From Candidatus Limnocylindria bacterium (GTDB taxonomy: Bacteria > Chloroflexota > Limnocylindria > P2-11E): 55,607 nt of DNA. Of this stretch, positions 20,554-55,607 are shown piece by piece. The DNA lies in contig JBGQFO010000004.1 in assembly GCA_041496945.1 (NCBI GenBank), positions 1 to 55,607 on the forward strand, given 5' to 3'. A program made the translations under genes and the position numbers. Positions within the stretch are counted from its first letter, which is position 1. Each line of letters begins with the position of its first letter. Below the pieces are notes generated by a model. It worked only from the letters and a program-made list of their open reading frames with translations, searched no databases and was not told where the DNA came from.

Positions 20554-21678
20554 CTACTGACCCGCGCGGATCCCCACGCTCACGATGCCGTGCGCTTTGG
20601 TCACGGGGATCTTCTGGACCACCAGGCGCGTGTGGACGTCGATCACGTTCACCATGCCGTCAACGTTCGTCGTGACGAGGATGCGGTCACCCTCCGGGTC
20701 GTACGTCGAGTGGAACGGCTGCTGCCCGAGCTTCGTCTCGCCGACGATGTGGCGCTCGCGCCAGTCGACCCAGAGCAGCGAGGGCCCGAGGTGATCGGAG
20801 AGCAGCATGATGCTGGTGTCCTCGGGTGTGTACATGCCGTCCTGCAACGGCTTGAGCGTGTGGAAGGGATACCGGCCCGGGAAGTGGATCTCCTGCTTGA
20901 CCTTCTTCGCGATCGGGTCGTAGATGACCATGCGATCGGATGGCTTGTCGATGAAACCGCTGCTGCTGGACCAGACCTCGCTGCCGTCGGGTGTGAAGTA
21001 GGCGTCGTGGACATCGCCGATCCGGATCTTCGTGATCTGCTTCGTATCCAGGTCGATCACGCGGAGCACATCACTTTCGCCGGAGTTCGTGACCGAGAAC
21101 CACATCTCGTTCGGATGGCCCGTGTTGATCGTGAGCACGTGCTGCGGGACACCGACCATGAGCGGCGTGCTCGTCCAGGTGCCCGTCTGGATCGCCGCGA
21201 TGTAGTTGTCCTTCTCGTGACCGACGTAGAGCATCTTCCCGTCCGGCGAGAAGCTGAGCCCGTGGGGCTGCTTGCCGACGGGGATGCGGACGATCTCCTT
21301 CAGCGCGATCGGGTCGATGATCGAGGTGGTGTTCGCCATGCGGTTGTTGACCGCGACGTACCTGCCGTCCGGCGACACGGCCATCTGATGCGGCATCCGG
21401 CCGACGGGGATCTTGGTGACCATCTGGAAGGGCGAGTCCGGCGCGGCCTCCATCACCCAGACCTGATCCGTGGATTCGGAGGCGACGAAGACCCGCAGCT
21501 TCTGGTACAGCCGGATGTCCGGCGTGGGCGCGGGCAGCGCGGCGACGACGACCGCCGCGTCGGGCTGCGCAGGCGCGAGCGTCGCATCGGGGATCGGCGG
21601 AGCCGGAGGGCCGACGGATGTGCCCGCACAAGAGGCGAGCACGAGCGCACACGTCGCGATGACTGCGATGACCCTCAC
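20554..21678 (-). CDS. YncE/YVTN-type beta-propeller lipoprotein, His-rich
   Basis: Lipobox VLASC, Pro/Ala linker, repeats KIPVGRMPHQMAVSPDG and RIPVGKQPHGLSFSPDG. GTG 21678 is preferred over TTG 21735. Confidence 0.82.
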   Translation of the reverse strand: MRVIAVIATCALVLASCAGTSVGPPAPPIPDATLAPAQPDAAVVVAALPAPTPDIRLYQKLRVFVASESTDQVWVMEAAPDSPFQMVTKIPVGRMPHQMAVSPDGRYVAVNNRMANTTSIIDPIALKEIVRIPVGKQPHGLSFSPDGKMLYVGHEKDNYIAAIQTGTWTSTPLMVGVPQHVLTINTGHPNEMWFSVTNSGESDVLRVIDLDTKQITKIRIGDVHDAYFTPDGSEVWSSSSGFIDKPSDRMVIYDPIAKKVKQEIHFPGRYPFHTLKPLQDGMYTPEDTSIMLLSDHLGPSLLWVDWRERHIVGETKLGQQPFHSTYDPEGDRILVTTNVDGMVNVIDVHTRLVVQKIPVTKAHGIVSVGIRAGQ

Positions 21679-41330: not shown

Positions 41331-41792
41331 CTACTTCTTCGGCAGCGACCGCAGGTACGCGATGATGTCGGCGAGCTGCGTGTCGCTCAGGCCGTTCGTC
41401 GAGAACGCCGGCATGCCCGGGCCGCCCGTTCGCACCTTCGTCAGCAGCACCTCGTCGGTCACGGCCAGCAGCGGTTTGCCCACCGCGCTGCCGCCGGCGT
41501 CGAGCGAATGGCATGCCGCACAGCCACGCGTGACGTACAGCCAGGCGCCCCGGCCGAGGGGGTCGCTCGCGGTGGGAGTCGTCGTCTCGAGTCCCGCGAA
41601 CTCCGCGGGTGGCCCGACGACGATCTGGTCGGTGCGCGTGTAACGCTCGTCGTACGCGACCGCGAGGTTGGCGTGGGTGTAGGGGCTGTTCGCGCCGATG
41701 GTCAGGATCGTCAGGGCGACGAGCACGAGCGCAAGGCCGATGACGACCGTCGCGCGGCGGTGCGCTGGCCCGCCGAAGATCAGAGAGATCAT
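41331..41792 (-). CDS. Membrane-anchored monoheme cytochrome c, 153 aa
   Basis: N-terminal TM, CAACH, GGPGMP (axial Met). ATGA overlap. Confidence 0.9.
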   Translation of the reverse strand: MISLIFGGPAHRRATVVIGLALVLVALTILTIGANSPYTHANLAVAYDERYTRTDQIVVGPPAEFAGLETTTPTASDPLGRGAWLYVTRGCAACHSLDAGGSAVGKPLLAVTDEVLLTKVRTGGPGMPAFSTNGLSDTQLADIIAYLRSLPKK

Positions 41793-43789
41793 CCTCGGAC
41801 CGGAGCCTCCGCGCGAGAGATGCGCGCGACGAGGATGGCCACGTACCCGTAGAGCGACCACACGATGATGAGGACGAGCGCGATGGGCCAGCCGCTCATC
41901 GCGGGCCAGAGCTGCGCGAAGAAGAGCGGCAACCCGGTCTGCGTCGAAGCCTCCGCGCGGCCGACGACCGGCCCCTCGTTCAATCCCGGTACGAGGATCC
42001 CGGCACGCTGGACGTAGAGCTGCTCGTCGCCGGTCACGCTGATCGTCGCGAGTGCGCTGGATGGCGCGAATGTGTCATCGCCGCTGAAGCCGATGCGAAT
42101 CTCCTGCGCGCCCGTCGTCTCGAGGTCGAAAGCGAAGTCGACCAGACCGGTCTTGTCGGTCACGAGCTGGTCCAGGAGGACGCGACCGCTCGAACCGAGG
42201 AAGCCCAGGCTCGCGGTGACCTTGAGCGTCGCGCCGACCACCGGCGCGCGCTTCGCGTCGACGAGACGCGCTTGGCCCTGGATCGGCTGGCCGATGGCCG
42301 CGTGCGCCGGCAGCGCGACGGCGATCTGCGTAGCGACTCGGTCGTCCGCGCCGGCCTGCGCGCCGAAGAAGAGACCGAACCCCGTGCCCGCGACCATGAG
42401 CAGCGCCGCGATCACCGCGCCGGCCGCGCGGACCCGGCTCGGGCCGCCCTGCGCCGCAGCCGGCTGCGGCTCCGGACCGCGATGCTCGATGACCTCCCAG
42501 ATCGAGATGACCGGGAAGAGCTTCGTGAACACGGTGATGATCAGAGCGAAGAGCGCGAACGCACCCGCAAGGATCGACCACTCCACCCAGGTCGGCGTGT
42601 AGTCGGACGGCGCGTAGGGCATGAGCGGGACGCGGAATCCGGTCACGACGATGAGGTAGCGCTCGATCCACATGCCGACGAGAGCGAGGGCCGCTGCGGC
42701 AGTGATCCCGGCTATCGTTCGCGTGCGCGGGTTCAGGATGATGAGGCCCGGCAGGACGATGCTGCCAAGGATGTAGAACCAGAAGAGCGGCCAGAAGGGG
42801 CCGGTCATGAGCTGCGCGAAGTGGAAGGGCACGCCCTCTTCGAGCTTGTAGCCCTCGACGGCGTATTCCTGCAGGTTGAAGTACCCCATGATCAGAGTGA
42901 ACGCCGCGAGCAGATACCCGAGGCCCTTGAACTGCGTGATGGTGATGAAGACCTCGAGATGAAGGATGCGGCGGAGCACCGCCATGAGCACGATGATCGC
43001 GGCGATGCCCGAGTAGATCGCGCCGGCGACGAAGAACGGACCGAACACCGTCGTGTTGAGCGGCACGCGGAGCGTCATCGCGAAGATCCACGAGACGACC
43101 GTGTGCACCGACACGGCGACGGGGATGATGATGATCATCATCACGGTCATCGCCTTGTCGAGCGCCTTCCGCTGCGACGGCGTGCCGTGGAAACCGACGG
43201 CCGCGGTGGTGAACAGGAATCGCTGCACGCGATTCGCGCCTGGTCCCAGGCGGTCACGCGCGAGCGCGAAGTCCGGGATCAGCGGAAGCAGCAGGTACAG
43301 GGTCGAGCCCGTGAGGTACGTGAGGATCGCGAGGATGTCCCAGATGAGCGGGGACTGCCAGCGGCCGTACTGGATCAGGTTGAGGAACCGCTCCGGGTGG
43401 CCCATGTCGATGAAGGGGAACAGCGCTCCGACGATCAGCGCGACCACCGTGATGAGCTCGGCCATGCGCGTGATCGAGAGCTGCCAGCGCGCCTTCGCCG
43501 CGCGCAGGATCGCCGAGAGCAGCGTCCCCGCGTGGCTGATCCCGATGAAGAAGACGAAGCTCGCGATGTACACGCCCCACGAGATGCGGTCGCGCATGCC
43601 CGTGACGATCAGCCCGTCGCCGAGCTGGGTGGACCACGCGTACAGGCCCCAGCCGAGGACGGCGAGAAGGCCGACGACCCAGATCAGGTAGCGGCGGCTC
43701 GTCCGCTCGAGCGGCGCGAGCGCGAGTCGCTCGAGGTTGGCTCGCCACTCGGGCGCGACGTTCGAGGCGGGGTGCTCTAGCGCTTCCAC
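41789..43789 (-). CDS. NrfD/ActC-like quinol-interacting membrane subunit fused to a C-terminal Ig-like domain, 666 aa
   Basis: WGVYIASFVFFIGISHAGTLLSAIL, SITRMAE, DMGHPER, SPLIWD, VHTVVSW, FVAGAIYSG, then a beta-rich domain with FSGDDTFAPS and a final TM. Confidence 0.88.
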   Translation of the reverse strand: MEALEHPASNVAPEWRANLERLALAPLERTSRRYLIWVVGLLAVLGWGLYAWSTQLGDGLIVTGMRDRISWGVYIASFVFFIGISHAGTLLSAILRAAKARWQLSITRMAELITVVALIVGALFPFIDMGHPERFLNLIQYGRWQSPLIWDILAILTYLTGSTLYLLLPLIPDFALARDRLGPGANRVQRFLFTTAAVGFHGTPSQRKALDKAMTVMMIIIIPVAVSVHTVVSWIFAMTLRVPLNTTVFGPFFVAGAIYSGIAAIIVLMAVLRRILHLEVFITITQFKGLGYLLAAFTLIMGYFNLQEYAVEGYKLEEGVPFHFAQLMTGPFWPLFWFYILGSIVLPGLIILNPRTRTIAGITAAAALALVGMWIERYLIVVTGFRVPLMPYAPSDYTPTWVEWSILAGAFALFALIITVFTKLFPVISIWEVIEHRGPEPQPAAAQGGPSRVRAAGAVIAALLMVAGTGFGLFFGAQAGADDRVATQIAVALPAHAAIGQPIQGQARLVDAKRAPVVGATLKVTASLGFLGSSGRVLLDQLVTDKTGLVDFAFDLETTGAQEIRIGFSGDDTFAPSSALATISVTGDEQLYVQRAGILVPGLNEGPVVGRAEASTQTGLPLFFAQLWPAMSGWPIALVLIIVWSLYGYVAILVARISRAEAPVRG

Positions 43790-44649
43790 GTCGTCGCGCC
43801 TTTCACCAGTCGCTGCCAGGGCCAGACCGTCGGCAGCCGTCCCTTCTTTGTCGCGCTCCGGCCCACGAGCTCGCCGTGACCGGCGATGTAGTGCACGCGC
43901 GGCTCGGTGCCGAGCTCCTCCTTGAGCCGGTACGCGTTGTTGTCCGCCAGGAACCTCGAGAGCTTCACGACCTCGAACCGGTTGGTCGCGAGGTCCTCCT
44001 CCAGATCGCCGTAATAGATCGCCCCGTTGGGGCAGCCCTGCGCGCAGAACGGCACCCGTCCGGCGCGGGCGACGTCGGGGCAGAAGTCGCACTTCATGAC
44101 CGTCCCGCGGATCGCGGGCGACTGATGCTCGACGTTGTATTCCATGAACAGTGCCTCGGCGGGTATCGGCGCGTTCCCCCAGTTGAAGAAGCGGCGGTCG
44201 TAGGGGCACGCCTCCATGCACAGGCGGCAGCCGATGCAGCGTTGCTGATCGATCAGCACGGTGCCCTCGGGCGTTGAGAACGTCGCCGCGACCGGGCAGA
44301 CATTCACGCACGGCGGGTTCTGGCACTGCTGGCACGGTGTTGGCAGGAATTGCGTGGCCCGGCCCTCTCGGTCGAGCGGCGCCTCGTAGACCTGGATCCA
44401 CTCCATCGGCTCGGGCGCGAAGTGGCCCTCGATGCAGGCCTGGGTGCATTGCGGCGGCTTCCCGATGGATTGGCAGCCATCGCATTTCCGCAGGTCGATA
44501 GCCATGCTCCAGCGGCGCAAACGGCCCTTCTTCGCGGGCGCGCTCGACGCCGAACCGGAGACGCTGCTCGCGCCGACCTGGGTGAGGCCCGCGGCTGCGA
44601 TGCCCGCGCCGAGGAGCCGGAGCAAGCCCCTACGCGGTACTCCCGACAT
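43777..44649 (-). CDS. TAT-exported 4x[4Fe-4S] NrfC/DmsB-like ferredoxin subunit, 290 aa
   Basis: PRRGLL TAT signal and 16 Cys in four groups (CDGC-x8-CTQAC; CQQC..PPCVNVC; CIGCRLCMEAC; CDFC...CAQGC). TACGGT sits 7 nt before the ATG. Confidence 0.92.
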   Translation of the reverse strand: MSGVPRRGLLRLLGAGIAAAGLTQVGASSVSGSASSAPAKKGRLRRWSMAIDLRKCDGCQSIGKPPQCTQACIEGHFAPEPMEWIQVYEAPLDREGRATQFLPTPCQQCQNPPCVNVCPVAATFSTPEGTVLIDQQRCIGCRLCMEACPYDRRFFNWGNAPIPAEALFMEYNVEHQSPAIRGTVMKCDFCPDVARAGRVPFCAQGCPNGAIYYGDLEEDLATNRFEVVKLSRFLADNNAYRLKEELGTEPRVHYIAGHGELVGRSATKKGRLPTVWPWQRLVKGATTWKR

Positions 44650-44816
44650 GGAAGTGACCGTACGGGAGGGGCAATCGCCGACCACAGGGTCGTACGGCCC
44701 ATCTCCAAGGGACGAACGGCTACCGCGACACCGGCCGGTCACGCCCGCGCGGCACCGCCGTACCATCACCCCGCCGTCGTCACGGGCGGTAAGGGGAGAG
44801 GGCGATCAGCAGCACG

Positions 44817-46226
44817 GTGGCGATCACGCGCACGCCAGTCGTGTCCGCGCGCGACGCGGAGCGCGCGCTTCGCACCGCCCTCTCGCGTGGTGGCGGCTGG
44901 GCCGAGCTCTTCTGGGAGCGACACGAGACCCTGCAGCTCGTCCTCGACGACGGCCGCATCGAAGATGCGATCTCCGGTGTCGATCAGGGCGCGGGTGTGC
45001 GCGTCAGCGACGGCGAGCGCACCACGTATGCGAACGGCAATGTCACGGATCTCGACGATGTGATGTCGCTCGCGGGACGGGCCGCCGCGGGCGTGTCCGA
45101 AGGCGGCGATCTGCACGACGCCGCGCGGCTCATGCCGGACGAGCCTGCGCGGCCGCACACGGTGGCGATCGATCCGCGCGATGTGCCGGTGGAGCGGAAG
45201 GTCGCTCTGCTGCGCAGGGCGAACGAGGTCGCGCGGGCCCACGATCCGCGCGTGACACAGGTGACCGTCTCGTACTCCGAGAGCGTGCAGGACGTGCTCG
45301 TCGCGAACAGCGATGGCGTGTACCGCGCGGACACCCGCGTTCGTCTGAACTTCATGATCAACGTCGTCGCGAAGCAGGGCGAGATCCTCGAGTCCGGCTT
45401 CGAGGCGGTGCGCGGGACGCGGGGGTTCGAGATGCTCGACGACGACGTCGTCGCCGAGTGCGCCACCGTCGCCGCCGGGCGCGCCTGCCTCAACGTCGGT
45501 GCCGAGCCCGCACCCGCCGGCACGTACACCGTCGTGCTCTCGAGCGACGCCGGCGGCACGCTCATCCACGAATCGGTCGGCCACGGCCTCGAGGCCGATC
45601 TCAACCTAAAGGGCCTCTCCGTGTATTCGGGGCGCATCGGGCAGAAGGTCGCGAGCGAGCTCATCACCGTGGTCGACGACGGACGCGATCCCGGCCAGCG
45701 TGGCACGGCCGCGATGGACGATGAGGGCACGTCCACGAACCGGACGGTGCTCATCGACAAGGGCGTGCTGCGTACGTATCTCTCCGACCGCAAGCACGCC
45801 GACACGCTCGGGATCCCGCGCTCAGGTAACGCGCGCCGCGAGAGCTTCCGCTATCTGCCGATCTGCCGGATGACGAACACGATGATCGAGCGCGGGGAAT
45901 CCGACCCCGAGGAGATCCTGCGCTCGGTGAAGGACGGCATCTTCGTGAAGAAGATGGGGGGCGGCCAGGTCGACGTCGTCTCGGGCAACTTCGCGTTCGA
46001 GATCACCGAGTGCTACCGCATCCGGGATGGCAAGCTGGCGGAGCCGCTGCGCGGCGCGACCCTCGTCGGCGAGGGGCCGAAGCTCATGAGCGAGATCGAT
46101 ATGGTCGGATGGGACCTCGGCTACTCGACGGGCACCTGCGGGAAGGACGGCCAGAGCGCGCCGGTCGCCGACGCGCAACCCACGCTGCGGATCCCCTCGG
46201 TGGTCGTCGGCGGCAAACTCAAATGA
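44817..46226 (+). CDS. tldD: TldD metalloprotease subunit, 469 aa
   Basis: LIHESVGHGLEAD (HExxxH), RRESF..LPICRMTNT, GGGQVD, GTCGKDGQ. Confidence 0.95.
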   Translation: MAITRTPVVSARDAERALRTALSRGGGWAELFWERHETLQLVLDDGRIEDAISGVDQGAGVRVSDGERTTYANGNVTDLDDVMSLAGRAAAGVSEGGDLHDAARLMPDEPARPHTVAIDPRDVPVERKVALLRRANEVARAHDPRVTQVTVSYSESVQDVLVANSDGVYRADTRVRLNFMINVVAKQGEILESGFEAVRGTRGFEMLDDDVVAECATVAAGRACLNVGAEPAPAGTYTVVLSSDAGGTLIHESVGHGLEADLNLKGLSVYSGRIGQKVASELITVVDDGRDPGQRGTAAMDDEGTSTNRTVLIDKGVLRTYLSDRKHADTLGIPRSGNARRESFRYLPICRMTNTMIERGESDPEEILRSVKDGIFVKKMGGGQVDVVSGNFAFEITECYRIRDGKLAEPLRGATLVGEGPKLMSEIDMVGWDLGYSTGTCGKDGQSAPVADAQPTLRIPSVVVGGKLK

Positions 46227-46345
46227 GAACGAGCGACGAGCGGTTCATCCGCGAGGAGCGAGTCCGGCTCGCGAGTGACAACGAGCGGTTGAGCAGGAGT
46301 GACAACGAGCGGTTGAACGGTGTGTTCGTGAGGCGAGGCGCGTGA
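46223..46345 (+). CDS. Putative 40-aa small ORF with repeated SD(N)ER(L/F) motif
   Basis: MRTSDERFIREERVRLASDNERLSRSDNERLNGVFVRRGA. The ATG overlaps the tldD stop (ATGA) and the stop overlaps the pmbA start (GTGA). Confidence 0.5.
   Translation: MRTSDERFIREERVRLASDNERLSRSDNERLNGVFVRRGA
46273..46316. repeat. Direct repeat, 20 bp x2 (period 24), with a degenerate copy at about 46231-46247
   Basis: GAGTGACAACGAGCGGTTGA at 46273-46292 and 46297-46316. Confidence 0.9.
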
Positions 46346-46362
46346 GCGCCCGCCTCACGAAC
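46324..46362 (+). promoter_or_regulatory. Hairpin with the pmbA start codon in its loop
   Basis: GTTCGTGAGGCG-A-GGCGC-[GTGA]-GCGCC-CGCCTCACGAAC: 12+5 bp stem, and the loop is the GTG/TGA overlap. Confidence 0.7.
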
Positions 46363-47694
46363 GATGAGGTCGTCGAGCGCGCGCTGGCGTCGCTACGCGG
46401 TGCGGGCGTCCGCACAGCCGAGGTCTTCCTGCGCGATGCGCTGTCCGGCTCGGTCGAGACGAAGGACGGCGCGATCGAGAACGTCATCGCACGCGGCGAG
46501 CGCGGCCTGGGCGTCCGCGTCCTCGACGATGAGCGCATGGGGTTCGCGCACTCATCCGACCTGGCCAGCGCGGGCATCGAGGCGGTCGTGGATCAGGCGC
46601 GCCGCATGGCGAGGATCACGGAGCCAGATGCGGATCTGGGCATCGCGAGCGGGACCCTGACGGTCGCTGACCTGTCGATCTTCACCCCTGGTCTGGAGGA
46701 GCGGCCGCTTGCGCAGCGCGGCGCGATCGCGCTCGCGGTCGAGAAGGCGGCGCGCGACGCGGACCCGCGGGTGACCCACTTCCGCAAGACGACCTACAGC
46801 GACGCGGAGATCACGACCATCATCGCGACGACCACGGGCGTCCGTGCCTCGTACCGGGAGAGCCACTGCGGAGCGATGACCAGCCCGGTCGCGACGCAGA
46901 ACGGCGAGCGCCAGATCGGCTACCACGGCGAGGGCGCTCGCCGGCTGACCGATCTCGACCCCGCGCGCATCGGCGGCCGCGCGGCGAAGCGGGCTGTCGA
47001 GAAGCTCGGCGCGCGGCCGTTCCCCACCCAGAAGCTGCCCGTGGTGCTCGACCCATGGATGGCGATGAGCCTGCTTGGGGCGATCGCGCCGCTCTTCTCC
47101 GCGGACAACGTCCTGAAGGGCCGCAGCCTCTTCGCGGGCAGGATCGGCGCCCTTGTCGCGAACGAGCGCGTCACCATCGTGGACGACGGCCGGCGACGGG
47201 GCGGCCTGCGCAGCGCGCCGTTCGACGGCGAGGGCATCCCGACGACAACGCGCACGCTCGTCGAACGCGGGGTCCTTCGGAGCTATCTGACGAACATCAA
47301 GACCGGGCGCAAGCTCGGAGCCTCGTCGAATGGGAATGCCCGGCGCGGGTCGTACGCCTCCCCCAGCCGCATCGGACCGTCGAACTTCTACGTTGAGCAA
47401 GGCGTGGACGATCCGCCGGCAATGGTGCGGTCCCTGGAGCGCGCGCTCTCCATCACCAGCCTGCTCAACCTTCACACCATCGATCCGGTCTCAGGCGAGT
47501 TCTCGCTCGGTGCCACCGGCACCTATCTCGAGAAGGGCGCACCCGTCCACCCGGTGCAGGGCATCACCATCGCCGGCAACCTCACGCACCTGCTCTCCTC
47601 CGTGACCGGCGTCGGCACCGACCTCACCTTCGGACCGAGCGGCCTGGGCAGCCCCACGCTGCTCATCGCCGAGCTCTCGATCGGGGGCACCTGA
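46342..47694 (+). CDS. pmbA: PmbA/TldE subunit, 450 aa
   Basis: ERGLGVRV, SAPFDGEG, GNARRG, TIDPVSGEFS, ITIAGNL. It has no HExxxH. Confidence 0.93.
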   Translation: MSARLTNDEVVERALASLRGAGVRTAEVFLRDALSGSVETKDGAIENVIARGERGLGVRVLDDERMGFAHSSDLASAGIEAVVDQARRMARITEPDADLGIASGTLTVADLSIFTPGLEERPLAQRGAIALAVEKAARDADPRVTHFRKTTYSDAEITTIIATTTGVRASYRESHCGAMTSPVATQNGERQIGYHGEGARRLTDLDPARIGGRAAKRAVEKLGARPFPTQKLPVVLDPWMAMSLLGAIAPLFSADNVLKGRSLFAGRIGALVANERVTIVDDGRRRGGLRSAPFDGEGIPTTTRTLVERGVLRSYLTNIKTGRKLGASSNGNARRGSYASPSRIGPSNFYVEQGVDDPPAMVRSLERALSITSLLNLHTIDPVSGEFSLGATGTYLEKGAPVHPVQGITIAGNLTHLLSSVTGVGTDLTFGPSGLGSPTLLIAELSIGGT

Positions 47695-48647
47695 TGCTCT
47701 GGCAGACGCTCCTCCACGGCGATCCGATGCCGTGGCTCCTCGAGAAGTCTGACCCAGCGGTCCGCGCGCTCACGCTCCGGCAGCTGCTGGATCGCGGGCC
47801 GCGCGATGCCGAGCTGCGCGAGACGCAGCAGCGCGCGATGAGCTCGCCGCCGATATCCACGCTCCTCAAACGCCAACGGACGGATGGGAGCTGGCCTGGG
47901 CCGAACATCTACCAGCCGAAGTACGAGGGCACGCATTGGTCGAACCTGTTGCTCATCGAGTACGGCGCCGATGCAGGCGATCCGCGGGTGAGGCGCGCCG
48001 CGCGACGCGTGCTCGAGGACGTCACGGATCCCGCGAAGAGCGGCATGGGCTGGGTCTTCGAGCGCGACCACGGCGCGTCCTGCTTCGTCGGCAACGTGGT
48101 GCGCTACGTCTCGCTCGCGGGATTCGGCGCCGACGCCCGTCTCGAGCCGCTCGTCCAGCGTCTGGTCCGTGAGTCGAAGAAGTACGACGCGGCCTGCGTG
48201 ATAAACGGCGACGATCCGTGCGCCTGGGGCTATGCCCGTCTCATCTGGGGCCTCGCGGCACTGCCGGAGGGGGCGCGCACGCGTGAGGTGGAGCGCACCC
48301 TGCGCCGCGGCGTGGAGTTCCTCCTCAGCTACAAGCTCGACCGCGGCCGCTATCCCACGGCCACCGAGCCCTCCTATCTCTGGCGCCAGCTCTCGTTCCC
48401 GCTCTTCTATCAGGCGGACGTGCTCTTCGTGCTCCGCGCGATCGATGCCGCCGGCGAGATCGACGACCCGCGCGCGCAGCCCGCGATCGCGTGGCTCCTC
48501 GCGCGCCAGGACGAGCGCGGGCGCTGGGCCGGCCGCGCGCCGTACGCCGACCGCATGGCCTCGCGCATCGACGCGTCGAAGTGGGTCACCCTGCAGGTGC
48601 TCACGCTCCTGAAGCACGCGTTCTCGCCGGACGAGAACGCTTCCTAG
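47694..48647 (+). CDS. Prenyltransferase/squalene-oxidase-repeat (alpha/alpha toroid) protein, 317 aa
   Basis: QW-like repeats LKRQRTDGSW and LARQDERGRW, PKYEGTHW, FPLFY..D, SKWVT. TGATG overlap with pmbA. Confidence 0.7.
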   Translation: MLWQTLLHGDPMPWLLEKSDPAVRALTLRQLLDRGPRDAELRETQQRAMSSPPISTLLKRQRTDGSWPGPNIYQPKYEGTHWSNLLLIEYGADAGDPRVRRAARRVLEDVTDPAKSGMGWVFERDHGASCFVGNVVRYVSLAGFGADARLEPLVQRLVRESKKYDAACVINGDDPCAWGYARLIWGLAALPEGARTREVERTLRRGVEFLLSYKLDRGRYPTATEPSYLWRQLSFPLFYQADVLFVLRAIDAAGEIDDPRAQPAIAWLLARQDERGRWAGRAPYADRMASRIDASKWVTLQVLTLLKHAFSPDENAS

Positions 48648-48668
48648 CGTCTAGGCTTCGGCCAGCGC

Positions 48669-49622
48669 ATGGCTCGGAGCCGCGTCCTCAAGGACATCCC
48701 CCCACTCCGTTTCGGCGAAGGCCGCGACTGCACGCTGCCCGCGTGCCTCGCGATCGCCGGCGGAGCCGACTACGACTGGGTCATGGGCGTCTCCGGCGCG
48801 GCGTTCAGCGCGACCATCGACGCGGCGACGTGGGACCCGCTCGCCGCGGCGCCGCTCGACGACGCGACCCTCGCGCGCGGCGCGCAGGCGCTGGGCATGA
48901 AGGCGGACGTGGTCGGTCCGCCCTTCGACGAGGAGATGCGTGCGCTGGTGCTCGACCGGGTCGCGGAGTCGATCGAGAGCAAGAGCGCGCCGCTGGTCAA
49001 GGGCATCGCCGGCCCGCCGGAATACGGGCTCATCGTCGGCTACGACGAGGTCGGGCCGACGTTCCTCGCGCGCACCTACTTCGATAAGAGCGACAAGCCG
49101 AACAAGATGGATTGGAGCGCGTTCGCGGACGCCGAGCACGGCCTCGTCGCCTTTCTCGACACCGGGACGGTCCCCGATCGCGGGGCGCTGGCGCGCTCGG
49201 CGGTGGCGCACGCGGTCGCGACGGCGCCGCTCGCGGAGGAGGCGCTGCGGGCGTGGCTCGAGGGCCTGCGCGATGACGCCCGTTGGTCGGATACGAAGCA
49301 CGCCGGTGCCGCGGCGTTCGGCGATCACGCGATGCGGACGATCCTCGCGGACAAGCGACGAGCGGCTGCGCGATTCCTCCGCGGTGTCCGGAGCATCTTC
49401 TCGACCGCCCCCGGGGCCGACCTCCTGCGCGCCGCGGAGTCGTACGGATTCGTGGTCGACGCCTGCGCGAAGATCGGGGTCGGGACGTTCGACGGCTCGG
49501 TCGCGCTTCGCTTCCTCGACATCGGGCATCGCCGTTCCTGGGCCAAACAGCTCGAGGCGATCATCGGACACGAGCGCGAGGCACTAGACGCGCTCGCGGC
49601 CGCGAAGGAGGCGATGCGCTGA
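48669..49622 (+). CDS. Hypothetical protein, BtrH-N / C39-like fold possible, 317 aa
   Basis: RDCTLPACL...DWVMGVSGAAF...PEYGLIVGYD pattern. The expected catalytic His is not evident. Confidence 0.5.
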   Translation: MARSRVLKDIPPLRFGEGRDCTLPACLAIAGGADYDWVMGVSGAAFSATIDAATWDPLAAAPLDDATLARGAQALGMKADVVGPPFDEEMRALVLDRVAESIESKSAPLVKGIAGPPEYGLIVGYDEVGPTFLARTYFDKSDKPNKMDWSAFADAEHGLVAFLDTGTVPDRGALARSAVAHAVATAPLAEEALRAWLEGLRDDARWSDTKHAGAAAFGDHAMRTILADKRRAAARFLRGVRSIFSTAPGADLLRAAESYGFVVDACAKIGVGTFDGSVALRFLDIGHRRSWAKQLEAIIGHEREALDALAAAKEAMR

Positions 49623-50410
49623 ACGACATTGCGGCGGCCGTGATCTTGGGTTTGGTGCAGGGCCTCACCGAATTCCTTCCGGTGTCCTCGACCGCGCACC
49701 TCATCCTCGTCACCGGCGCGCTCGGTCTGGATCCCGACCGCTTCGGGCTGTCCTTCGACGTGGCGCTGCACCTCGGGACCGCGCTCGCGGTCCTCCTCTA
49801 CTTCGCGCGCACCTGGCTGGGCCTCGTGCGCGACGTGCTCGCGCGTCGCTGGCGCATGCCGGTCCTGGTGGTCGTGGGGACGCTGCCCGCCGCCGTCGCC
49901 GGTGTGCTGCTCGAGAGCGCCGTCGAGAAGACGCTCCGCGCACCGGGCTGGATCGTGCTCGGGCTCGTGGTCGGATCGGTGATCTTCGTGGCGGTGGAGC
50001 GCGTCGCCGATCGCCGGCGCGCCATGAACGAGCTCCGCATCCCGGACGCGCTCCTCATGGGAGCCGCCCAGGCGATCGCGCTGCTGCCCGGCATCAGCCG
50101 GTCCGGCATCACCATCTCCGCCGGCCTGCTGCGCGGGCTCACGCGAGAGGAGGCGACCCGCTTCAGCTTCCTCCTCGCGACACCGGTGATCCTCGGTGCG
50201 GGGGTGAAGACGCTGCTCGACGCGCGCAAGGCGGCCGAGCTCCTGGCATCGCCCGACGTGTTGGCCGTCGGCTTCGGCGTGTCCTTCGTGTCGGGCCTCG
50301 CCGCGGTCGCGTTCCTGGTGCGCTTCCTGCGTACGCATTCGTTGAACTGGTTCGTCGGGTATCGGCTCGTCCTGGCCGTCGTGGTGGCCCTCACGCTCCT
50401 CGTGGCCTAG
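49619..50410 (+). CDS. uppP: Undecaprenyl-diphosphate phosphatase (BacA)
   Basis: GLVQGLTEFLPVSSTAH, HLGT, AQAIALLPGISRSGIT, RFSFLLATP. Start is CTG 49619 or GTG 49640. Confidence 0.95.
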   Translation: MNDIAAAVILGLVQGLTEFLPVSSTAHLILVTGALGLDPDRFGLSFDVALHLGTALAVLLYFARTWLGLVRDVLARRWRMPVLVVVGTLPAAVAGVLLESAVEKTLRAPGWIVLGLVVGSVIFVAVERVADRRRAMNELRIPDALLMGAAQAIALLPGISRSGITISAGLLRGLTREEATRFSFLLATPVILGAGVKTLLDARKAAELLASPDVLAVGFGVSFVSGLAAVAFLVRFLRTHSLNWFVGYRLVLAVVVALTLLVA

Positions 50411-50542: not shown

Positions 50543-50968
50543 ATGCGGGCGCGCCACGTCATCGCTCTTGCCATCGCGACCAGCCTGCTGGCGGTCGCCT
50601 GTGGCTCCGGATCCGCTGCCCCCGCGACGACCGCGACGACGCTCACGGTCACGCTCACCGACACCACCGTGCAGCTGAGCGCGGCCACGATCCCCCCAGG
50701 CAAGGTGACGCTCCGGGTCGTGAACACGGGAACGGTCGTGCACAGCATCGTCCTGCTCAAGACCGACATCGCACAGGACAAGATCCCGGCGGACACAAAG
50801 GACCCCTCGAAGGTGCAGGAGGTCGGCAGCGTCGCGGCGACGGGCCAGATGGCCGTCGGCGTGACGAAGGAGCTGGTGCGTGATCTCGCCGCGGGCAACT
50901 ACGTGTTCATCTGCAACGAGCCCGCGCACTACCTCGTCGGGATGCATGTCGGGCTGGTCGTCAAGTGA
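50543..50968 (+). CDS. Type-1 copper cupredoxin lipoprotein (auracyanin/sulfocyanin-like), 141 aa
   Basis: Lipobox LAVAC, NTGTVVH, YVFICNEPAHYLVGM (H...C..H...M). SD AGGAG. Confidence 0.9.
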   Translation: MRARHVIALAIATSLLAVACGSGSAAPATTATTLTVTLTDTTVQLSAATIPPGKVTLRVVNTGTVVHSIVLLKTDIAQDKIPADTKDPSKVQEVGSVAATGQMAVGVTKELVRDLAAGNYVFICNEPAHYLVGMHVGLVVK

Positions 50969-51480
50969 ACAGGGCCGCCGTCTCGCTCGCCGCCCTCTTC
51001 CTCGCGGCGGCCTGCGGCGGTGGCACTTCGTCCGCAGCTGAGCCGTCCGCGGCCGCGACCCGCGCTCCGGCGGTCGCGACGCTCCCGCCCACGTCGACCG
51101 TCGCGGCCACAGTCGCGCCCACACCCGTCGCCACCACCAGCGCGCCCGCATCGACGGCGACGACGCCCGCCGCGACCGCGACGCCCGCGGCGACGAGTGC
51201 CGCGAGCCCGTCGGCCGGCGGGCTGAGCGCCCTGGCCGCACGCGGCAAGGTCGTCTTCGAGACCGCCGGCGAGGTCGGGTGCCAGGACTGCCACGGGCCA
51301 GCGGGCAAGGGCGGCACGCTCAAGAACGGCCAGACCGCACCGGACATCCGCGGCGCCACGTACCAGAAGGTCTACGACGCGCTGCGTGGCGGCGTGCCGA
51401 ACATGACCTTCATCAAGCTGACGACCGCGGAGCTCGAGGCCGTCGTCGAGTACCTCCAGTACCTGAACACGCTGCCATGA
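50965..51480 (+). CDS. Monoheme cytochrome c lipoprotein with long Ala/Thr/Pro linker, 171 aa
   Basis: Lipobox LAAAC, CQDCH, VPNM axial Met. GTGA overlap. Confidence 0.9.
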   Translation: MNRAAVSLAALFLAAACGGGTSSAAEPSAAATRAPAVATLPPTSTVAATVAPTPVATTSAPASTATTPAATATPAATSAASPSAGGLSALAARGKVVFETAGEVGCQDCHGPAGKGGTLKNGQTAPDIRGATYQKVYDALRGGVPNMTFIKLTTAELEAVVEYLQYLNTLP

Positions 51481-51588
51481 ATCTCGGCGATCCCGAAGGG
51501 ATCGACCGGTAGGACAGGAAGTAGGAAAGGTAGGAGCCATGCATCGAGCCCAGCGACCACGACCAGATGGAGGAAAGGAAGGCAACAC

Positions 51589-53058
51589 ATGAAGCGACAC
51601 CTCGTGAAGTTCCTCGCCATCGGTGCGGCGGTCGCGATCCTCGCGGGAGCCTGCACGCAGGCCGCCCCCGGGACCGCGTCGCCGACACCGCAGCAGTCCG
51701 CAGCGACCGTCACGACGACCGTCCAGTCCGCGCAGCTGCAACCGGCGCCGGCCGGGGCACAGCCGAGCGGCTGGGAGACCGCCGAAGCGATCCGCGGTCA
51801 GCTGAAGCTCCTCGCGAAATTCGACTCCTCGGGCAGCCCAGCCTGGGATCAGGTCAAGCACCCGACCGTCTTCGTGAGCAGCATGAGCTACCCGCTTGCC
51901 ACCGCCCAGCAGGCCGGCAAGATCTACGGCAGCGGCTTCTACATCATGGACGCGTACACAAAGGAGGTCGTCGCCTCACGCGTGTACGACCTCGGCGAGC
52001 CGCTGACCACGTACCCGCACTCCGTCGGCGCGTCGCCCGACGGCAAGTGGATCTACTTCATGCAGGCCGATCAGGTCGCGGCAACCAAAGAGGCCCGCGC
52101 CATGATCTTCATCGTCAACGCGCAGACCTTGAAGCTCGACAAGGTGCTCCAGCACCCGACCCAGCGTCTGCACCACGTCGGCGCGTTCAAGGACTCCAAG
52201 GGCCAGGACCGCGTGGTCCTCGACATGGGGTTCGGCGCGACGGGCGGGCCGCACTTCCTGCTCGACCCGAAGAACGACAACAAGGTCGTCCAGGCGATCA
52301 CCTTCGACGACATCCGTCCGATGGGTCACCCGTTCACGTCCCCCTCTCCGGACGGCAAGTACCTCTACATCTCGATGGGCGCCCCGGAGATCCGTGACGC
52401 CGAGTCCTACGCGGCGTCGATCGCGAAGTGGGACATCGAGAAGAAGGTCGCGACCGTCATTCACGGCGTGGGCAACCACCCGATCGGCGTGGCGAACACG
52501 CAGGACGGGAAGTTCACCTACGTCGTCGACGCGGAGAACAGCAAGGTCTTCAAGATCGACAACGCCACCAACACGATCATCGGCAAGACCAGCGCGGGCG
52601 TGGCCGGTCCGTACGGCGCTCGCCTGAACTGGGATGAGACACAGCTCTACATCGTGGGCAAGGGCGAGGGCAGCCACAACAAGGGCAGCGTCCTCGGCCT
52701 CATCGACACGAAGACGTTCCAGCAAGTGAAGCTCGCGAACATGCCGATCGAGCTCCTCACCGAGGCGAACGCCGCGGCTGGTGGAGTCGTCGCGAGCGTC
52801 GACCACGCGATCCTGCACCCCGACCCGACGTTGAACGAGATGTGGATCAGCAACATGGCCGGCAACGAGACCATCATCCTGGACATCGCCACCAACAAGG
52901 TGAAGGCCTACATCCCAACACCCAACGGCGGCAACACACACTCCGGCTTCTTCATGAAGTACGACGCGAGCTGGAATGGGGAGCTCCTCGCGGACATGCT
53001 CAGCCCCGGCCCAGCGCAATCCAAGCTCATGAAAGAGAAGGCAGCGGCAGTCAAGTAG
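51589..53058 (+). CDS. His-rich beta-propeller lipoprotein (YncE/NosZ-propeller-like), function unknown, 489 aa
   Basis: Lipobox LAGAC, SPDGK repeats, His at blade starts (YPH, LHH, MGH, GNH, VDH, NTH). Strong SD. Confidence 0.75.
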   Translation: MKRHLVKFLAIGAAVAILAGACTQAAPGTASPTPQQSAATVTTTVQSAQLQPAPAGAQPSGWETAEAIRGQLKLLAKFDSSGSPAWDQVKHPTVFVSSMSYPLATAQQAGKIYGSGFYIMDAYTKEVVASRVYDLGEPLTTYPHSVGASPDGKWIYFMQADQVAATKEARAMIFIVNAQTLKLDKVLQHPTQRLHHVGAFKDSKGQDRVVLDMGFGATGGPHFLLDPKNDNKVVQAITFDDIRPMGHPFTSPSPDGKYLYISMGAPEIRDAESYAASIAKWDIEKKVATVIHGVGNHPIGVANTQDGKFTYVVDAENSKVFKIDNATNTIIGKTSAGVAGPYGARLNWDETQLYIVGKGEGSHNKGSVLGLIDTKTFQQVKLANMPIELLTEANAAAGGVVASVDHAILHPDPTLNEMWISNMAGNETIILDIATNKVKAYIPTPNGGNTHSGFFMKYDASWNGELLADMLSPGPAQSKLMKEKAAAVK

Positions 53059-53077
53059 TCAAGAAAGCGATGGATGC

Positions 53078-53103
53078 GGGGTGCCCTCACGCGAGGGCAC
53101 CCC
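53078..53103. terminator. Intercistronic stem-loop (no U-tract)
   Basis: GGGGTGCCCTC-ACGC-GAGGGCACCCC, a perfect 11-bp stem 20 nt after the propeller stop. Confidence 0.6.
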
Positions 53104-53124
53104 AAGTCCGCAACGGAGAGTGAC

Positions 53125-53625
53125 GTGAACAAGATCGCGATCGCCGCAGTCACCAGTGTCTTCGCGCTCGCGGCGTGTGGGGGGACGTCAGCTCCGGCTG
53201 CGACGTCGCAGGCGACCGTCGCCGCGGCCCCCACCGCGGCACCAGCGACCCAGGCTCCCGCCGCCACGCCGGCAAAGACCGCGGCTCCCGCGGCATCGAC
53301 TCCTGCCGCATCGGCTCCTGCCGCATCGGCGCCCGCCGCGGCCGGCACACCGCGCAAGATCGCGGTCAGCGCGACGAACAGCAACTACAGCATCGCCACG
53401 CTCGAGGTGAAGTCCAGCGAGAAGATCGAGTTCGTGCTCACCAACACCGGTGAGGAGAAGCACAACCTGGTCGGCGTCGGCGAGGGCATCTCCATCGTGA
53501 GCCCCGACTTCGACGCCGGTAACACGGTCTCCTGGATCTGGACGGCCCCGACCAAGCTCGGCACCTTCCAGCTCCGGTGCTCCTACCACACCACCCTTCC
53601 GCCGATCCTGGTCACCGTGAAGTGA
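53125..53625 (+). CDS. Cupredoxin-domain lipoprotein (H...CxxH, no axial Met), 166 aa
   Basis: Lipobox LAAC, Ala/Pro linker, NTGEEKHN, FQLRCSYH. SD GGAG before GTG 53125. Confidence 0.82.
   Translation: MNKIAIAAVTSVFALAACGGTSAPAATSQATVAAAPTAAPATQAPAATPAKTAAPAASTPAASAPAASAPAAAGTPRKIAVSATNSNYSIATLEVKSSEKIEFVLTNTGEEKHNLVGVGEGISIVSPDFDAGNTVSWIWTAPTKLGTFQLRCSYHTTLPPILVTVK
53293..53337. repeat. 3 x 15-bp tandem repeat in a lipoprotein linker
   Basis: GCATCGACTCCTGCC / GCATCGGCTCCTGCC / GCATCGGCGCCCGCC = ASTPA-ASAPA-ASAPA. Confidence 0.85.
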
Positions 53626-54911
53626 GCGTCCTCACCGCACGCGCCGCCGTCGCGACCCGGAGCCACCTCGCCCTCGTGGGCGTGGCGATGCTCCTGGTCG
53701 CCGCGGTCGCGTCCGCGGCGTTGCTGCTGCGCACGCAGCCGCCGGCGGCGGCGCCCGCGACCACCGCCACCAACGTGCTTGCGGTCGTCGAACGCCGCGC
53801 GACCGCGGACGGCGGCCGGATCGACATCCAGGCGATCCTGGCGACCCCGGCGTACCTCCGCTGGACCGGACAGCCCGCGCTCGCGGAGCGGACCGCCGCC
53901 TCGGGTGAGCTCTCGATCATCTTCTCCGAGGACATCCATGAAGGCGCCCTGCCGGATCGACCCATGTGGCCGATCGTCGTCGATGGCCGCACGTACACGC
54001 CGGCACGTACCGACACCGTCTTCGACAGCGACCACCACCGCACGAGCGTGCTCGTCTACACCGACCCGTCCGCGCCGCTCGCGGTCGCGAGCGTCGCCGT
54101 GGCGGAGCTCCAGATCGCCGGCGCCGACGGATCGCTGCGCTGGGACAGGCCCTTCGGTGACGCCACCGGTACCGCCCAGGGTGGGCTCTCGGCCCCGCTG
54201 ATCCTCGCGCTCATGGGCGGGATGCTCGCGTCGATGTGGCCGTGTCTCTTCCAGCTCACGGCGTACTTCCTGCCGAGCGTCGCCGGCCTCTCCGTCGACC
54301 AGGCGCGCGATGGTCGCGCCGACGGTGCCGTACTCCGGACGGCGGTCCTGTTCGTCTCCGGCATCGTCATCGTGTACACCCTCGCGGGCTTGGCCGCGGG
54401 ATTCGCCGCGCAGTCCGTCTCGGGCACCGAGCAGTTCCAGGCGGCGCGCCAACCCCTGACGTTCGTGGCCGGGCTCGTGATCATCGGGATGGCCGCCAGG
54501 CTCGCGCTGCGCGCGCGTCGTCCGCTCGTCTGCCACATGCCGACGACCTCGCCGCGTCCGCGGCAGGGTCTTGGCACGGTCGCGCTCGGCCTCGCGTTCG
54601 CGACCGGCTGCATGACGTGCTTCGGTGCCGCGGTCGTGCTCGGCATGTTCACCTACGTCGTATCCACGGCCTCGCCGTTCGTCGGCGCGGCGATCCTCTT
54701 CGTGTTCTCGCTCGGGATCGCGGTGCCGCTCGTGCTCGCCGCGATGGCGATGGCGCGCGTCCTCCCGCTTCTCACCCGCCTCGAGCGCGTCACGCCCGCG
54801 CTCACCCTCGTCTCGGCGACGATCATGGCCGCGTACGGCGTGCTTCTGCTCACCGGGACGTCGCACGTCATGAGCGATGCCATCGCTCGTCTCGCGAGCA
54901 CCCTCCGATGA
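53622..54911 (+). CDS. CcdA/DsbD-TM-like protein fused to an N-terminal extracytoplasmic domain, 429 aa
   Basis: GGMLASMWPCL, FVSG...YTL.G, GLAFATGCMTC, FSLGIAVP. GTG 53622 in a GTGA overlap. Confidence 0.8.
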   Translation: MSVLTARAAVATRSHLALVGVAMLLVAAVASAALLLRTQPPAAAPATTATNVLAVVERRATADGGRIDIQAILATPAYLRWTGQPALAERTAASGELSIIFSEDIHEGALPDRPMWPIVVDGRTYTPARTDTVFDSDHHRTSVLVYTDPSAPLAVASVAVAELQIAGADGSLRWDRPFGDATGTAQGGLSAPLILALMGGMLASMWPCLFQLTAYFLPSVAGLSVDQARDGRADGAVLRTAVLFVSGIVIVYTLAGLAAGFAAQSVSGTEQFQAARQPLTFVAGLVIIGMAARLALRARRPLVCHMPTTSPRPRQGLGTVALGLAFATGCMTCFGAAVVLGMFTYVVSTASPFVGAAILFVFSLGIAVPLVLAAMAMARVLPLLTRLERVTPALTLVSATIMAAYGVLLLTGTSHVMSDAIARLASTLR

Positions 54912-55360
54912 GGCTCGCCGCCGCGATCCTGGCCGCGCTTTTCGCCGCGAGCTGCACCGCCGCGACGGCCACGGCGCCCTCGCCCGCCGCGCTGCCGGAC
55001 GCGCCGCTCCTCGCGAGCGAGAGCGGCGTGCTGCGTCCGATCGACAACGGGGGTCGCGTCGCGTTGAAGAGTGGCTACGCCACCGTGAAGCTGTCGCCGT
55101 CGCCGCAGTCCATGGACCCGCTCCTCCAGGTGTGGGTCTTCGACTCCGCCGGCAAGGCGCAGGAAGCAAACGTGTCGGTCGACTACGAGTCGCTCGACAT
55201 GGACCACGGCATGACGACGGCGATGGGTCAGTTCCACGAGGGCTGCTATCGCATGGGGCTCTCCTTCGGGATGGCCGGCTCGTGGCGTCTCACGATCCAC
55301 GTCGCGCGCGGCGGAGCCGAAGAGAAGCTCGTTCTGATCCTTCCCTGGGTGGGCCTGTGA
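54908..55360 (+). CDS. YtkA/FixH-like lipoprotein (putative Cu chaperone), 150 aa
   Basis: Lipobox FAASC, SLDMDHGM, Y...LSFGMAGSWRLTIHV. ATGA overlap. Confidence 0.72.
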   Translation: MRLAAAILAALFAASCTAATATAPSPAALPDAPLLASESGVLRPIDNGGRVALKSGYATVKLSPSPQSMDPLLQVWVFDSAGKAQEANVSVDYESLDMDHGMTTAMGQFHEGCYRMGLSFGMAGSWRLTIHVARGGAEEKLVLILPWVGL

Positions 55361-55607
55361 CCGCGGGCTACGCCGAGGACCTCGTCGCGGAGGCGCGTCA
55401 TCCCGTCGGCGACGGCGCGCTCGCGTCACCGCGCCGGACCGCGCGGCTCACCAACCCCGTGTGCGGCGACGAGATCGACCTCGACCTGGACCACGACGGC
55501 GCCCGCATCACCGATCTCGCGCACCGGACGCGCGGCTGCTCCTTCACCCGCGCCTCCGCCTCGCTCCTCGCGCGTTACGTGACTGGCATGAGCGTCGCGA
55601 GCGCGCG
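55357..55607 (+). CDS. SufU/IscU (NifU-N) family protein, truncated by the window end
   Basis: Hand translation from GTG 55357: MTAGYAEDLVAEARHPVGDG...TNPVCGDEI...RGCSFTRASAS. It is absent from the ORF track because there is no stop. Confidence 0.85.
   Translation, partial: MTAGYAEDLVAEARHPVGDGALASPRRTARLTNPVCGDEIDLDLDHDGARITDLAHRTRGCSFTRASASLLARYVTGMSVASA

Follow-up and report, generated by a model that had tools for sequence, protein, structure and literature searches.

A candidate copper respiratory enzyme with a layout like that of nitrous oxide reductase but an unrelated sequence in Candidatus Limnocylindria

INTRODUCTION

To our knowledge, beta-propellers whose hub is lined with copper-binding His are very rare: NosZ, the nitrous oxide (N2O) reductase, is the sole biological sink known for N2O, and thiocyanate dehydrogenase (TcDH) is the other characterized example. 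Here, we analyze an operon at positions 50543 to 55360 of a 55,607-nucleotide stretch of DNA (contig JBGQFO010000004.1, positions 1 to 55,607; hereafter the window) from an 80%-complete, 2.2-Mb metagenome-assembled genome (MAG) of a Candidatus Limnocylindria bacterium. Its layout is like that of nitrous oxide reductase, its sequence is unrelated, and it most likely encodes an unstudied copper respiratory enzyme. More specifically, we consider it probable, though well short of certain, that the operon is a complete extracytoplasmic redox system built around a new family of approximately eight-bladed beta-propellers, which would act as a His-ligated multicopper terminal oxidoreductase.

A lactonase-type (clade III) N2O reductase, L-NosZ, was reportedly described by He and colleagues in 2025 (Nature 646:152). 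It is a recently recognized propeller-type reductase that is encoded without nosDFYL and has cytochromes and transporters nearby (PMC13477213, PMC13685413). Its motifs are a CuA motif, CX2FCX3HXEM, together with DXHH, PHG, GPLH and EPH (NF052460). A 2026 review, which also sets out the place of NosR and NosX in NosZ systems, gives N2O reductase as the only known holder of the tetranuclear Cu-S cluster and describes the source of the cluster's sulfur as unresolved (PMC13685413). TcDH (PDB 5F75) is a propeller of the periplasm whose multinuclear copper site, ligated mostly by His, includes a His-His (HH) doublet; it has no CuA. Its active site consists of K103/H135/H136/H206/D314/H381/H437/H482/H528, and genes for copper handling are found close by (PMC6504805). 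Electrons from TcDH go to cytochrome c (PMC6504805, PMC9456337).

RESULTS AND DISCUSSION

Operon structure

The genes of the operon and the start of the gene that follows them are given below. The starts of cup2 and of the DsbD-like gene were set by comparison with the ortholog in L088, the best orthologous locus (89% identical, on a 567-kb contig).

50543-50968, + strand: cup1, lipoprotein type-1 cupredoxin (PF13473, Cupredoxin_1, 28.4 bits; SoxE; ligands H67/C124/H129/M134)
50965-51480, + strand: monoheme cytochrome c, a lipoprotein, on a long Ala/Pro/Thr tether (PF13442, PF00034; CQDCH)
51589-53058, + strand: His-hub beta-propeller lipoprotein, 489 amino acids (aa), presumed catalytic subunit (invariant His; structure model)
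53078-53103, + strand: GC-rich RNA hairpin (-33.9 kcal/mol, z -5.7, no U tract)
53125-53625, + strand: cup2, lipoprotein cupredoxin with His/Cys/His and no axial Met (PF13473, 26.8 bits, just below the cutoff of 27)
53622-54911, + strand: DsbD/CcdA-type membrane protein with an N-terminal immunoglobulin (Ig)-like ectodomain (PF02683, 44.3 bits; cutoff, 27.1)
54908-55360, + strand: YtkA-like lipoprotein with the Met/His motif MDMDHGM (PF13115, 21.2 bits, under the cutoff of 25.9)
55357-55607, + strand: 5' part of a SufU/NifU_N-like gene (GTGA overlap; PF01592 in the L088 ortholog)

All six open reading frames (ORFs) listed for 50543-55360 lie on the plus strand. Start/stop overlaps of 4 nucleotides (nt) were read at four junctions: GTGA joins cup1 to the cytochrome c gene and cup2 to the DsbD-like gene, ATGA joins the DsbD-like to the YtkA-like gene, and GTGA joins the latter to the SufU/NifU_N-like gene, the first three falling within the six genes. 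The six genes are real, co-oriented and translationally coupled, as the initial annotation, made from the sequence alone, had described them. Its five lipoproteins and one membrane protein were likewise recovered, with lipobox-like signal ends read in five of the six proteins (LAVAC, LAAAC, LAGAC, ALAAC and FAASC) and the DsbD/CcdA-type membrane protein (DsbD_TM) as the sixth, and the ligand set of cup1 and the CQDCH motif bear out the type-1 cupredoxin and monoheme cytochrome c that it named. In contrast, its operon end at 55360 does not hold, since the SufU/NifU_N-like gene starts at 55357 and continues on another contig (C5). The most likely starts are GTG 53125 for cup2, rather than 53074, and GTG 53622 for the DsbD-like gene.

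The hairpin begins 20 nt past the propeller stop codon and is a perfect 11-bp stem (GGGGTGCCCTC-ACGC-GAGGGCACCCC). Its stem sequence is kept in L088, L089 and L009, while the loops differ. It may act on the mRNA as a stabilizing or attenuating element and set how much enzyme is made relative to the accessory proteins.

The propeller family

A word-indexed search returned at least 445 homologs of the propeller, which carry only the source names "YncE", "YVTN family" or "hypothetical", and a full profile search of 1.84 billion representatives at 50% identity returned 82 clusters at E <= 1e-30. Searches of Pfam, NCBIfam and the PDB gave no specific name for the family, and literature searches turned up no paper on it within the library searched. 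Carriers are found among Chloroflexota, Acidobacteriota, Acidimicrobiia, Rhodobacteraceae and other groups.

Aligning 26 members, down to 49% identity, showed eight invariant His (H91, H144, H195, H196, H247, H363, H406 and H451); H222 and H410 are at least 90% conserved, and H297 is present in most members. H363 lies within the loop GKGEGSHN, which is itself invariant in this alignment. The propeller had been called His rich, but it contains only 14 His in 489 aa, and what is unusual is the invariant pattern (eight invariant and three nearly so). Its sole Cys is the lipobox Cys, and the mature protein is Cys-free.

In an AlphaFold2 (AF2) model of the propeller (pLDDT 83.5, pTM 0.85), roughly 30 strands can be assigned to about eight four-stranded blades. 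A conserved His is located at or just before the first, innermost strand in seven of these approximately eight blades, and H363 lies in the low-confidence invariant loop of the remaining one. Judged from the secondary structure, the His would form a ring around one mouth of the central channel. A generic YVTN/YncE propeller fold is supported by a TIGR02276 repeat match (27.6 bits) and by a sequence match to 1l0q (E = 5e-17); the latter is also the top Foldseek match and names the fold, not the function.

Searches for known copper propellers

No sequence relationship to NosZ, L-NosZ or TcDH was found, and by sequence the propeller appears to be a separate family that shares a NosZ/TcDH-like design principle and is a member of neither. 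Homology to NosZ, including a split NosZ, was rejected by hhalign against six Chloroflexota NosZ, which gave a probability of 2.7% and one 46-column match at the level of a blade. NosZ was also absent from the propeller's Pfam and NCBIfam matches and from its PDB sequence and profile matches, even at E <= 10. A split NosZ is further ruled out by the non-CuA cup2 and by the roughly eight blades of the model, so that the resemblance is one of analogy only. The two Cys of a CuA site (CX3CX3H..M) are lacking in the Cys-free mature propeller, and cup1 and cup2 each have one Cys beyond the lipobox. Set against the NosZ-type pattern of seven His on seven blades, the modeled propeller has eight invariant His, including an HH doublet, at the inner strands of approximately eight blades.

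Neighborhoods were counted over a 7-kb range in 79 genome loci, with ORFs called by a simple script on high-GC DNA; the MAGs are incomplete, which makes absences soft. Genes for nosDFYL were not among the recurrent neighbor clusters of these loci nor in L088, in a scan of neighbors that was not exhaustive.

Membership in L-NosZ was rejected as well: the propeller scores 15.4 bits against NF052460, for which the cutoff is 700, and lacks CX2FCX3HXEM. No true L-NosZ was found in 401 sampled Chloroflexota genomes. A second beta-propeller ORF of about 401 aa, at 20578-21462 on the minus strand of the window, is the genome's best match to the L-NosZ model (40.5 bits over model positions 156-243, far short of 700). 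For TcDH, no chain was present among the PDB matches (sequence, or profile at E <= 10) or in the Foldseek top 50. Finally, a DPANN "nosZ-like" gene was dismissed as an unrelated, CuA-only protein.

Electron carriers

A homologous monoheme cytochrome c accompanies the propeller in 63 of the 79 loci: 18 have it as a C-terminal fusion, 27 have its gene immediately downstream, and in a further 18 it lies elsewhere within 7 kb. Among more distant members of the family, the fusion partner is a type-1 cupredoxin, a cytochrome c together with a cupredoxin, or cupredoxins at both ends. These domain fusions show that heme c and type-1 copper are direct partners of the propeller. Cup2-like cupredoxins occur in 8 to 14 loci and cup1-like ones in 1 to 3, with cup1 orthologs confined to close relatives. 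The type-1 ligand set is complete in cup1, while cup2 has the His/Cys/His set without Met; H113/C152/H155 of cup2 are conserved in 14 homologs, most of which retain a Met. Genes for quinol input, either NrfCD-like modules or Rieske/cytochrome b genes, adjoin the propeller in several lineages, the latter in 6 to 8 loci (Acidimicrobiia).

DsbD-like, copper, sulfur and flavin helpers

The DsbD-like protein is encoded in 34 loci overall and in 32 of the 57 that have at least 3 kb of downstream sequence. These proteins form a subfamily of their own, with H121, H153, H154, W189 and P192 invariant in 32 sequences and E118 and R155 present in 29 to 30 of them (residues numbered from 53577). All of these residues lie in the extracytoplasmic domain, which is modeled as an Ig-like sandwich; a Foldseek search of this ectodomain, made for a copper-chaperone fold, returned generic Ig-like sandwiches only. 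In the membrane part, C223 and C345 are invariant and C319 and C348 conserved, giving a C345-x-x-C348 pair, and CcdA (5vkv) is the top structural match of the predicted model. The PF02683 score above the cutoff and the conserved transmembrane Cys place the protein in the DsbD/CcdA transmembrane family, with thiol-reductase activity predicted. The "CcdA-like thiol reductase" of the initial annotation thus stands as to family, but the extra His triad in the ectodomain and the membrane CxxC are unlike ordinary CcdA.

The YtkA-like assignment fell below the PF13115 threshold in the window, yet homologs in L062 and L032 pass it (28.3 and 26.1 bits; cutoff, 25.9), and M95, M98, H100 and M122 are conserved in six homologs. 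Besides the carriers, the following genes recur near the propeller.

About 20 of 79 loci: GAF kinase and NarL-type regulator
9-10 of 79 loci: hydrolase-like lipoprotein
About 9 of 79 loci: YtkA-like protein
8 of 79 loci: Sco1
7-8 of 79 loci: ApbE
7 of 79 loci: SufS, often with SufU directly after it, without sufBCD
7 of 79 loci: second YNCE-type propeller
6 of 79 loci: TlpA-like thioredoxin
5 of 79 loci: PCuAC

GAF-domain sensor kinases elsewhere are known to sense O2, NO or CO. A conserved ORF of approximately 130 to 200 aa without a Pfam match lies directly upstream of the propeller at L013:5314-5709 and in 14 other loci; in many Chloroflexota loci it follows the kinase/regulator pair, and it is absent from the window.

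SufS-SufU pairs are located directly 3' of the DsbD-like gene in L010 and L013. This suggests a link between SufS/SufU and the Cys-bearing DsbD-like protein, which may deliver sulfur or reducing equivalents for cluster assembly. Rhodobacteraceae clusters end in DUF2271, a PepSY_TM-flavodoxin-FNR protein and ApbE. Classes of ApbE-dependent transmembrane electron transfer, including the MsrQ-like/FMN_bind and DUF2271/PepSY_TM types, were defined previously (PMC8238504). As read from sequence, two unrelated ApbE-dependent systems, predicted to have the same function, are attached to one enzyme family.

Extent of the system

The system exceeds 50543-55360: an NrfC/NrfD/cytochrome c module elsewhere in the window and genes on contig C5 belong to it. 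The module comprises the following genes.

41331-41861, - strand: quinol-module monoheme cytochrome c (phmmer E = 1.7e-53 to its ortholog, the 156-aa cytochrome c of L088; the gene probably starts near 41801)
41789-43789, - strand: NrfD-family membrane subunit, about 666 aa (1,074 bits against the NrfD-like protein of L088, a carrier of PF03916; the listed ORF extends to 44485, overlapping the NrfC-like gene)
43777-44769, - strand: NrfC-like subunit, a 4Fe-4S ferredoxin bearing a Tat-like leader (590 bits against the Fer4_11 protein of L088)

In L088, the main strand carries, in order, genes for cupredoxin, cytochrome c, propeller, cupredoxin, DsbD-like, YtkA-like and NifU_N (SufU-like) proteins, followed by a Ferric_reduct (MsrQ-like) membrane protein, ApbE and an opposite-strand alpha/beta-hydrolase-like gene. 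The ApbE flavinylation motif at the C terminus of the MsrQ-like protein reads DVLSGASYTS. Divergent from the first cupredoxin gene, the other strand encodes an NrfC-like ferredoxin, then an NrfD-like protein of the membrane and a cytochrome c. The NrfC-like and first cupredoxin genes are divergent neighbors in L088, whereas in the window about 5.7 kb of other genes (44817-50410) part the NrfC-like gene from cup1. As read from ORFs, this interval holds two TldD/PmbA-like genes, two unnamed genes and one undecaprenyl-diphosphatase-like gene.

At the other end, the SufU-like gene runs off the contig. Positions 55167-55607 of the window overlap C5:1-441 (441 bp, 96.4% identity), and the contig break looks like an assembly break caused by strain variation. 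The remainder of the SufU-like gene and genes for an MsrQ-like/FMN_bind protein, ApbE and a hydrolase-like lipoprotein are carried by C5:1-3200. The L088 cluster is flanked by genes for a GAF histidine kinase, a NarL-type regulator, a two-domain multicopper oxidase and Usp; in our genome, the kinase/regulator/two-domain multicopper oxidase set sits on contig C1 (44.9-51.1 kb). A further GAF histidine kinase and NarL-type regulator pair stands beside the NirK gene on contig C97 (0.6-7.1 kb). The presence of such pairs at the multicopper oxidase, at NirK and at the L088 cluster suggests one shared regulon.

Genome context

The absence of oxidase subunit I, nirK and nosZ noted in the initial annotation is correct for the window. 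Across the genome it is not, as aa3-type COX1 is encoded on contig C2, with a partial one on C21, and NirK on C97; canonical NosZ was not found in this 80%-complete MAG. Among carrier genomes, canonical NosZ is present in 18 of 50 (36%) and NirK above the cutoff in 17 of 51 (our genome counted), compared with NosZ-like matches in about 13 of the 401 Chloroflexota genomes sampled. Rather than taking the place of NosZ, the family is enriched in genomes of the denitrifier type.

Rhodobacteraceae bacterium Alg231_30 has at least five family loci (L055, L058, L061, L065 and L067) with seven copies, three of them in L058. A DsbD-like gene, a second propeller and additional cytochromes c are confined to the L058-type locus; the remaining copies have cytochrome c fused or adjacent (L067) and stand in unrelated contexts. 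The neighbors of orphan paralogs in Rhodobacteraceae and Vicinamibacterales (PhoX, EF-Tu, an ABC transporter, a dimethylglycine-dehydrogenase-like protein and a TonB-type outer membrane protein) give no hint of a substrate. A 57%-identical homolog with cytochrome c and DsbD-like genes (L014) was found on a groundwater contig labeled "Methanobacteriota archaeon"; either this contig was mis-binned or the locus reached archaea by transfer.

Proposed function and alternatives

In the multicopper oxidoreductase that we favor, the ring of inner-strand His would most likely hold a multinuclear copper centre, possibly with a bridging sulfide, assembled at the membrane's outer face once Sec has exported the protein. 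Gene order and fusions point to a path in which electrons would pass from quinol through the NrfC/NrfD-like module and tethered cytochromes c and type-1 cupredoxins to the propeller hub, where a small oxidant would be reduced, N2O, NO and O2 being the obvious candidates. The DsbD-type membrane protein, with its His-bearing Ig-like ectodomain, the YtkA-like, Cu(I)-type lipoprotein (for which Sco1 or PCuAC would substitute in other lineages) and the cytoplasmic SufU-like sulfur carrier (with SufS at other loci) would serve maturation and upkeep. So would the flavinylated MsrQ-like transmembrane reductase with ApbE, in the position that NosR and NosX take relative to NosZ.

We place copper in the hub because of the partners and fusions, the three kinds of copper chaperone, and the His-only ligand pattern of one per blade plus an HH doublet. 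Inward electron flow is proposed because quinol-dehydrogenase or bc-type modules and cytoplasm-to-outside reductase systems adjoin the family; the GAF-type sensor-kinase/regulator pairs lend weak support. The notion of an uncharacterized enzyme with dedicated shuttles and copper-loading genes, put forward in the initial annotation, survives in part. The family is unnamed, and cytochrome c (63/79), the DsbD-like protein (32/57), recurring copper chaperones and cupredoxin fusions agree with it, and the co-conservation check proposed at the time shows that cytochrome c and the DsbD-like protein are kept with the homologs. For cupredoxin and YtkA, found in 3 to 14 of the 79 loci, the check goes partly against it, and copper in the propeller is putative.

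Several observations weigh against this reading. Cup1/cup2-like cupredoxins and YtkA-like partners are lineage-specific rather than family-wide, NrfC/NrfD-like genes lie within 7 kb in only 5 to 6 of 79 loci, and many members stand alone, with cytochrome c fused, no accessory genes nearby and unrelated contexts. The family is rare and patchy: of 401 Chloroflexota genomes sampled, 5 have it, and a congeneric genome that is 97% complete lacks it. The Foldseek matches were propellers of the generic YVTN/WD kind and the heme d1 domain, with its eight blades, of NirS, NirN and NirF, and every template modeling (TM) score stayed below 0.5. Mutual exclusion with NosZ, sought as support for an N2O reductase, was not found, and a simple N2O-reductase replacement is disfavored because 36% of carriers already hold canonical NosZ; several paralogs per genome and the stand-alone copies also speak against a simple N2O-reductase role. 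Lastly, the up to five paralogs seen in one Rhodobacteraceae genome suit a dehydrogenase family with diverse substrates better than one terminal reductase.

Such a dehydrogenase is the main rival, and we regard it as possible but unlikely. On the TcDH/quinohemoprotein model, a small reduced sulfur, nitrogen or one-carbon compound would be oxidized at the His-bound metal, and cytochrome c or cupredoxin, fused or adjacent, would pass the electrons on to the aerobic chain. A propeller with a C-terminal cytochrome c matches the architecture of type II quinohemoprotein dehydrogenases, and TcDH, a copper propeller, hands its electrons to cytochrome c (PMC6504805, PMC9456337). The paralogs, a DsrE-like gene adjoining one member (L072) and the aerobic, COX1-bearing nature of our genome also speak for an oxidizing role. 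However, the neighboring quinol-dehydrogenase/bc-type and ApbE-linked reductase systems give electrons rather than take them, and TcDH chains in the PDB remain unmatched even in the profile search.

A more specific form of the reductase, which we think doubtful, would give the propeller a His-ligated copper-sulfide cluster of the CuZ kind; it would then be an N2O (or NO) reductase of a fourth type, unrelated in sequence to the others. A dedicated cytoplasmic SufS/SufU pair would supply the sulfur, which the Cys-bearing DsbD-like protein would pass across the membrane to its own His-lined ectodomain.

It is improbable that the propeller holds no copper and is instead a diverged heme d1-type eight-bladed domain (NirS/NirN/NirF), a protein with another metal or cofactor, or a noncatalytic scaffold for cytochrome c. 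The best specific Foldseek matches are indeed cd1 nitrite reductase, NirN and NirF (E about 1e-12), distant members give subthreshold matches to PF02239, and NirS likewise pairs a propeller with a cytochrome c domain. Yet the TM scores are merely 0.41 to 0.50, the window propeller has no PF02239 match, and one invariant His per blade is not what a single heme needs; moreover, the neighbors are copper chaperones and cupredoxins, and d1 biosynthesis genes were not seen in the clusters examined. Least plausible is that housekeeping genes of the ordinary kind (CcdA maturing cytochrome c, YtkA and Sco serving aa3 oxidase, SufU serving Fe-S clusters) merely neighbor a propeller whose function is unrelated: such roles of CcdA, Sco1, PCuAC and YtkA/CtaK are established, an aa3-type oxidase is carried on C2 and a partial one on C21, and cupredoxin and YtkA partners are not family-wide, but 4-nt overlaps run throughout the operon, a DsbD-like subfamily with an invariant-His ectodomain tracks the propeller across phyla, SufS-SufU pairs occur without sufBCD, and the cupredoxin and cytochrome c fusions amount to direct partnership.

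If the favored multicopper oxidoreductase is real, it would be a third, unrelated and widespread family of His-hub copper propellers, with electron carriers and assembly genes of its own, and the design would have arisen more than once. Abundant uncultured bacteria of soil, groundwater and the sea (Chloroflexota, Vicinamibacterales, SAR202, Acidimicrobiia and Rhodobacteraceae) would also gain a new respiratory reaction. Should the substrate be an N-oxide, the counting of N2O/NO sinks in metagenomes would change. The link between the DsbD-like protein and SufS-SufU bears on the sulfide source of extracytoplasmic Cu-S clusters, and a CuZ-kind cluster would imply a NosDFYL-independent route to a Cu-S cluster outside the cell.

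Comparison with known systems

In multicopper oxidases, eight His hold a trinuclear copper cluster that is fed by a type-1 cupredoxin site. The eight invariant His and the type-1 cupredoxins, in trans or fused, would here form a numerical analogy, the His sitting at a cupredoxin domain interface in the former and at a propeller hub in the latter. NirS is alike in its eight-bladed propeller and cytochrome c and provides the best specific fold matches, but its cofactor is heme d1, and the window propeller lacks a PF02239 match and stays below a TM score of 0.5. L-NosZ differs in keeping the CuA motif, whereas the propeller described here has no CuA. TcDH shares an exported propeller, the HH doublet, the lack of CuA, a cytochrome c partner and nearby copper-handling genes, with the metal in our propeller presumed; it differs in having seven blades and a Tat signal.

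A comparison can also be drawn with NosZ (clades I and II, including cNosZ, which bears a cytochrome c). Both are exported propellers, in our modeled one the one His per blade and the HH doublet would face the hub as in NosZ, and in both electrons would enter via a cupredoxin or cytochrome c domain, which is fused in some members. Sec-type export is shared with clade II NosZ. Copper chaperones accompany the propeller, a flavinylated membrane reductase with ApbE would take the role of NosR/NosX, and a quinol-dehydrogenase module with cytochromes that of NosGH/NosC. However, NosZ has seven blades and our propeller approximately eight, the CuA of NosZ contrasts with partner cupredoxins of the type-1 kind with one Cys, and the DsbD-like protein and SufS/SufU are seen here in place of nosDFYL.

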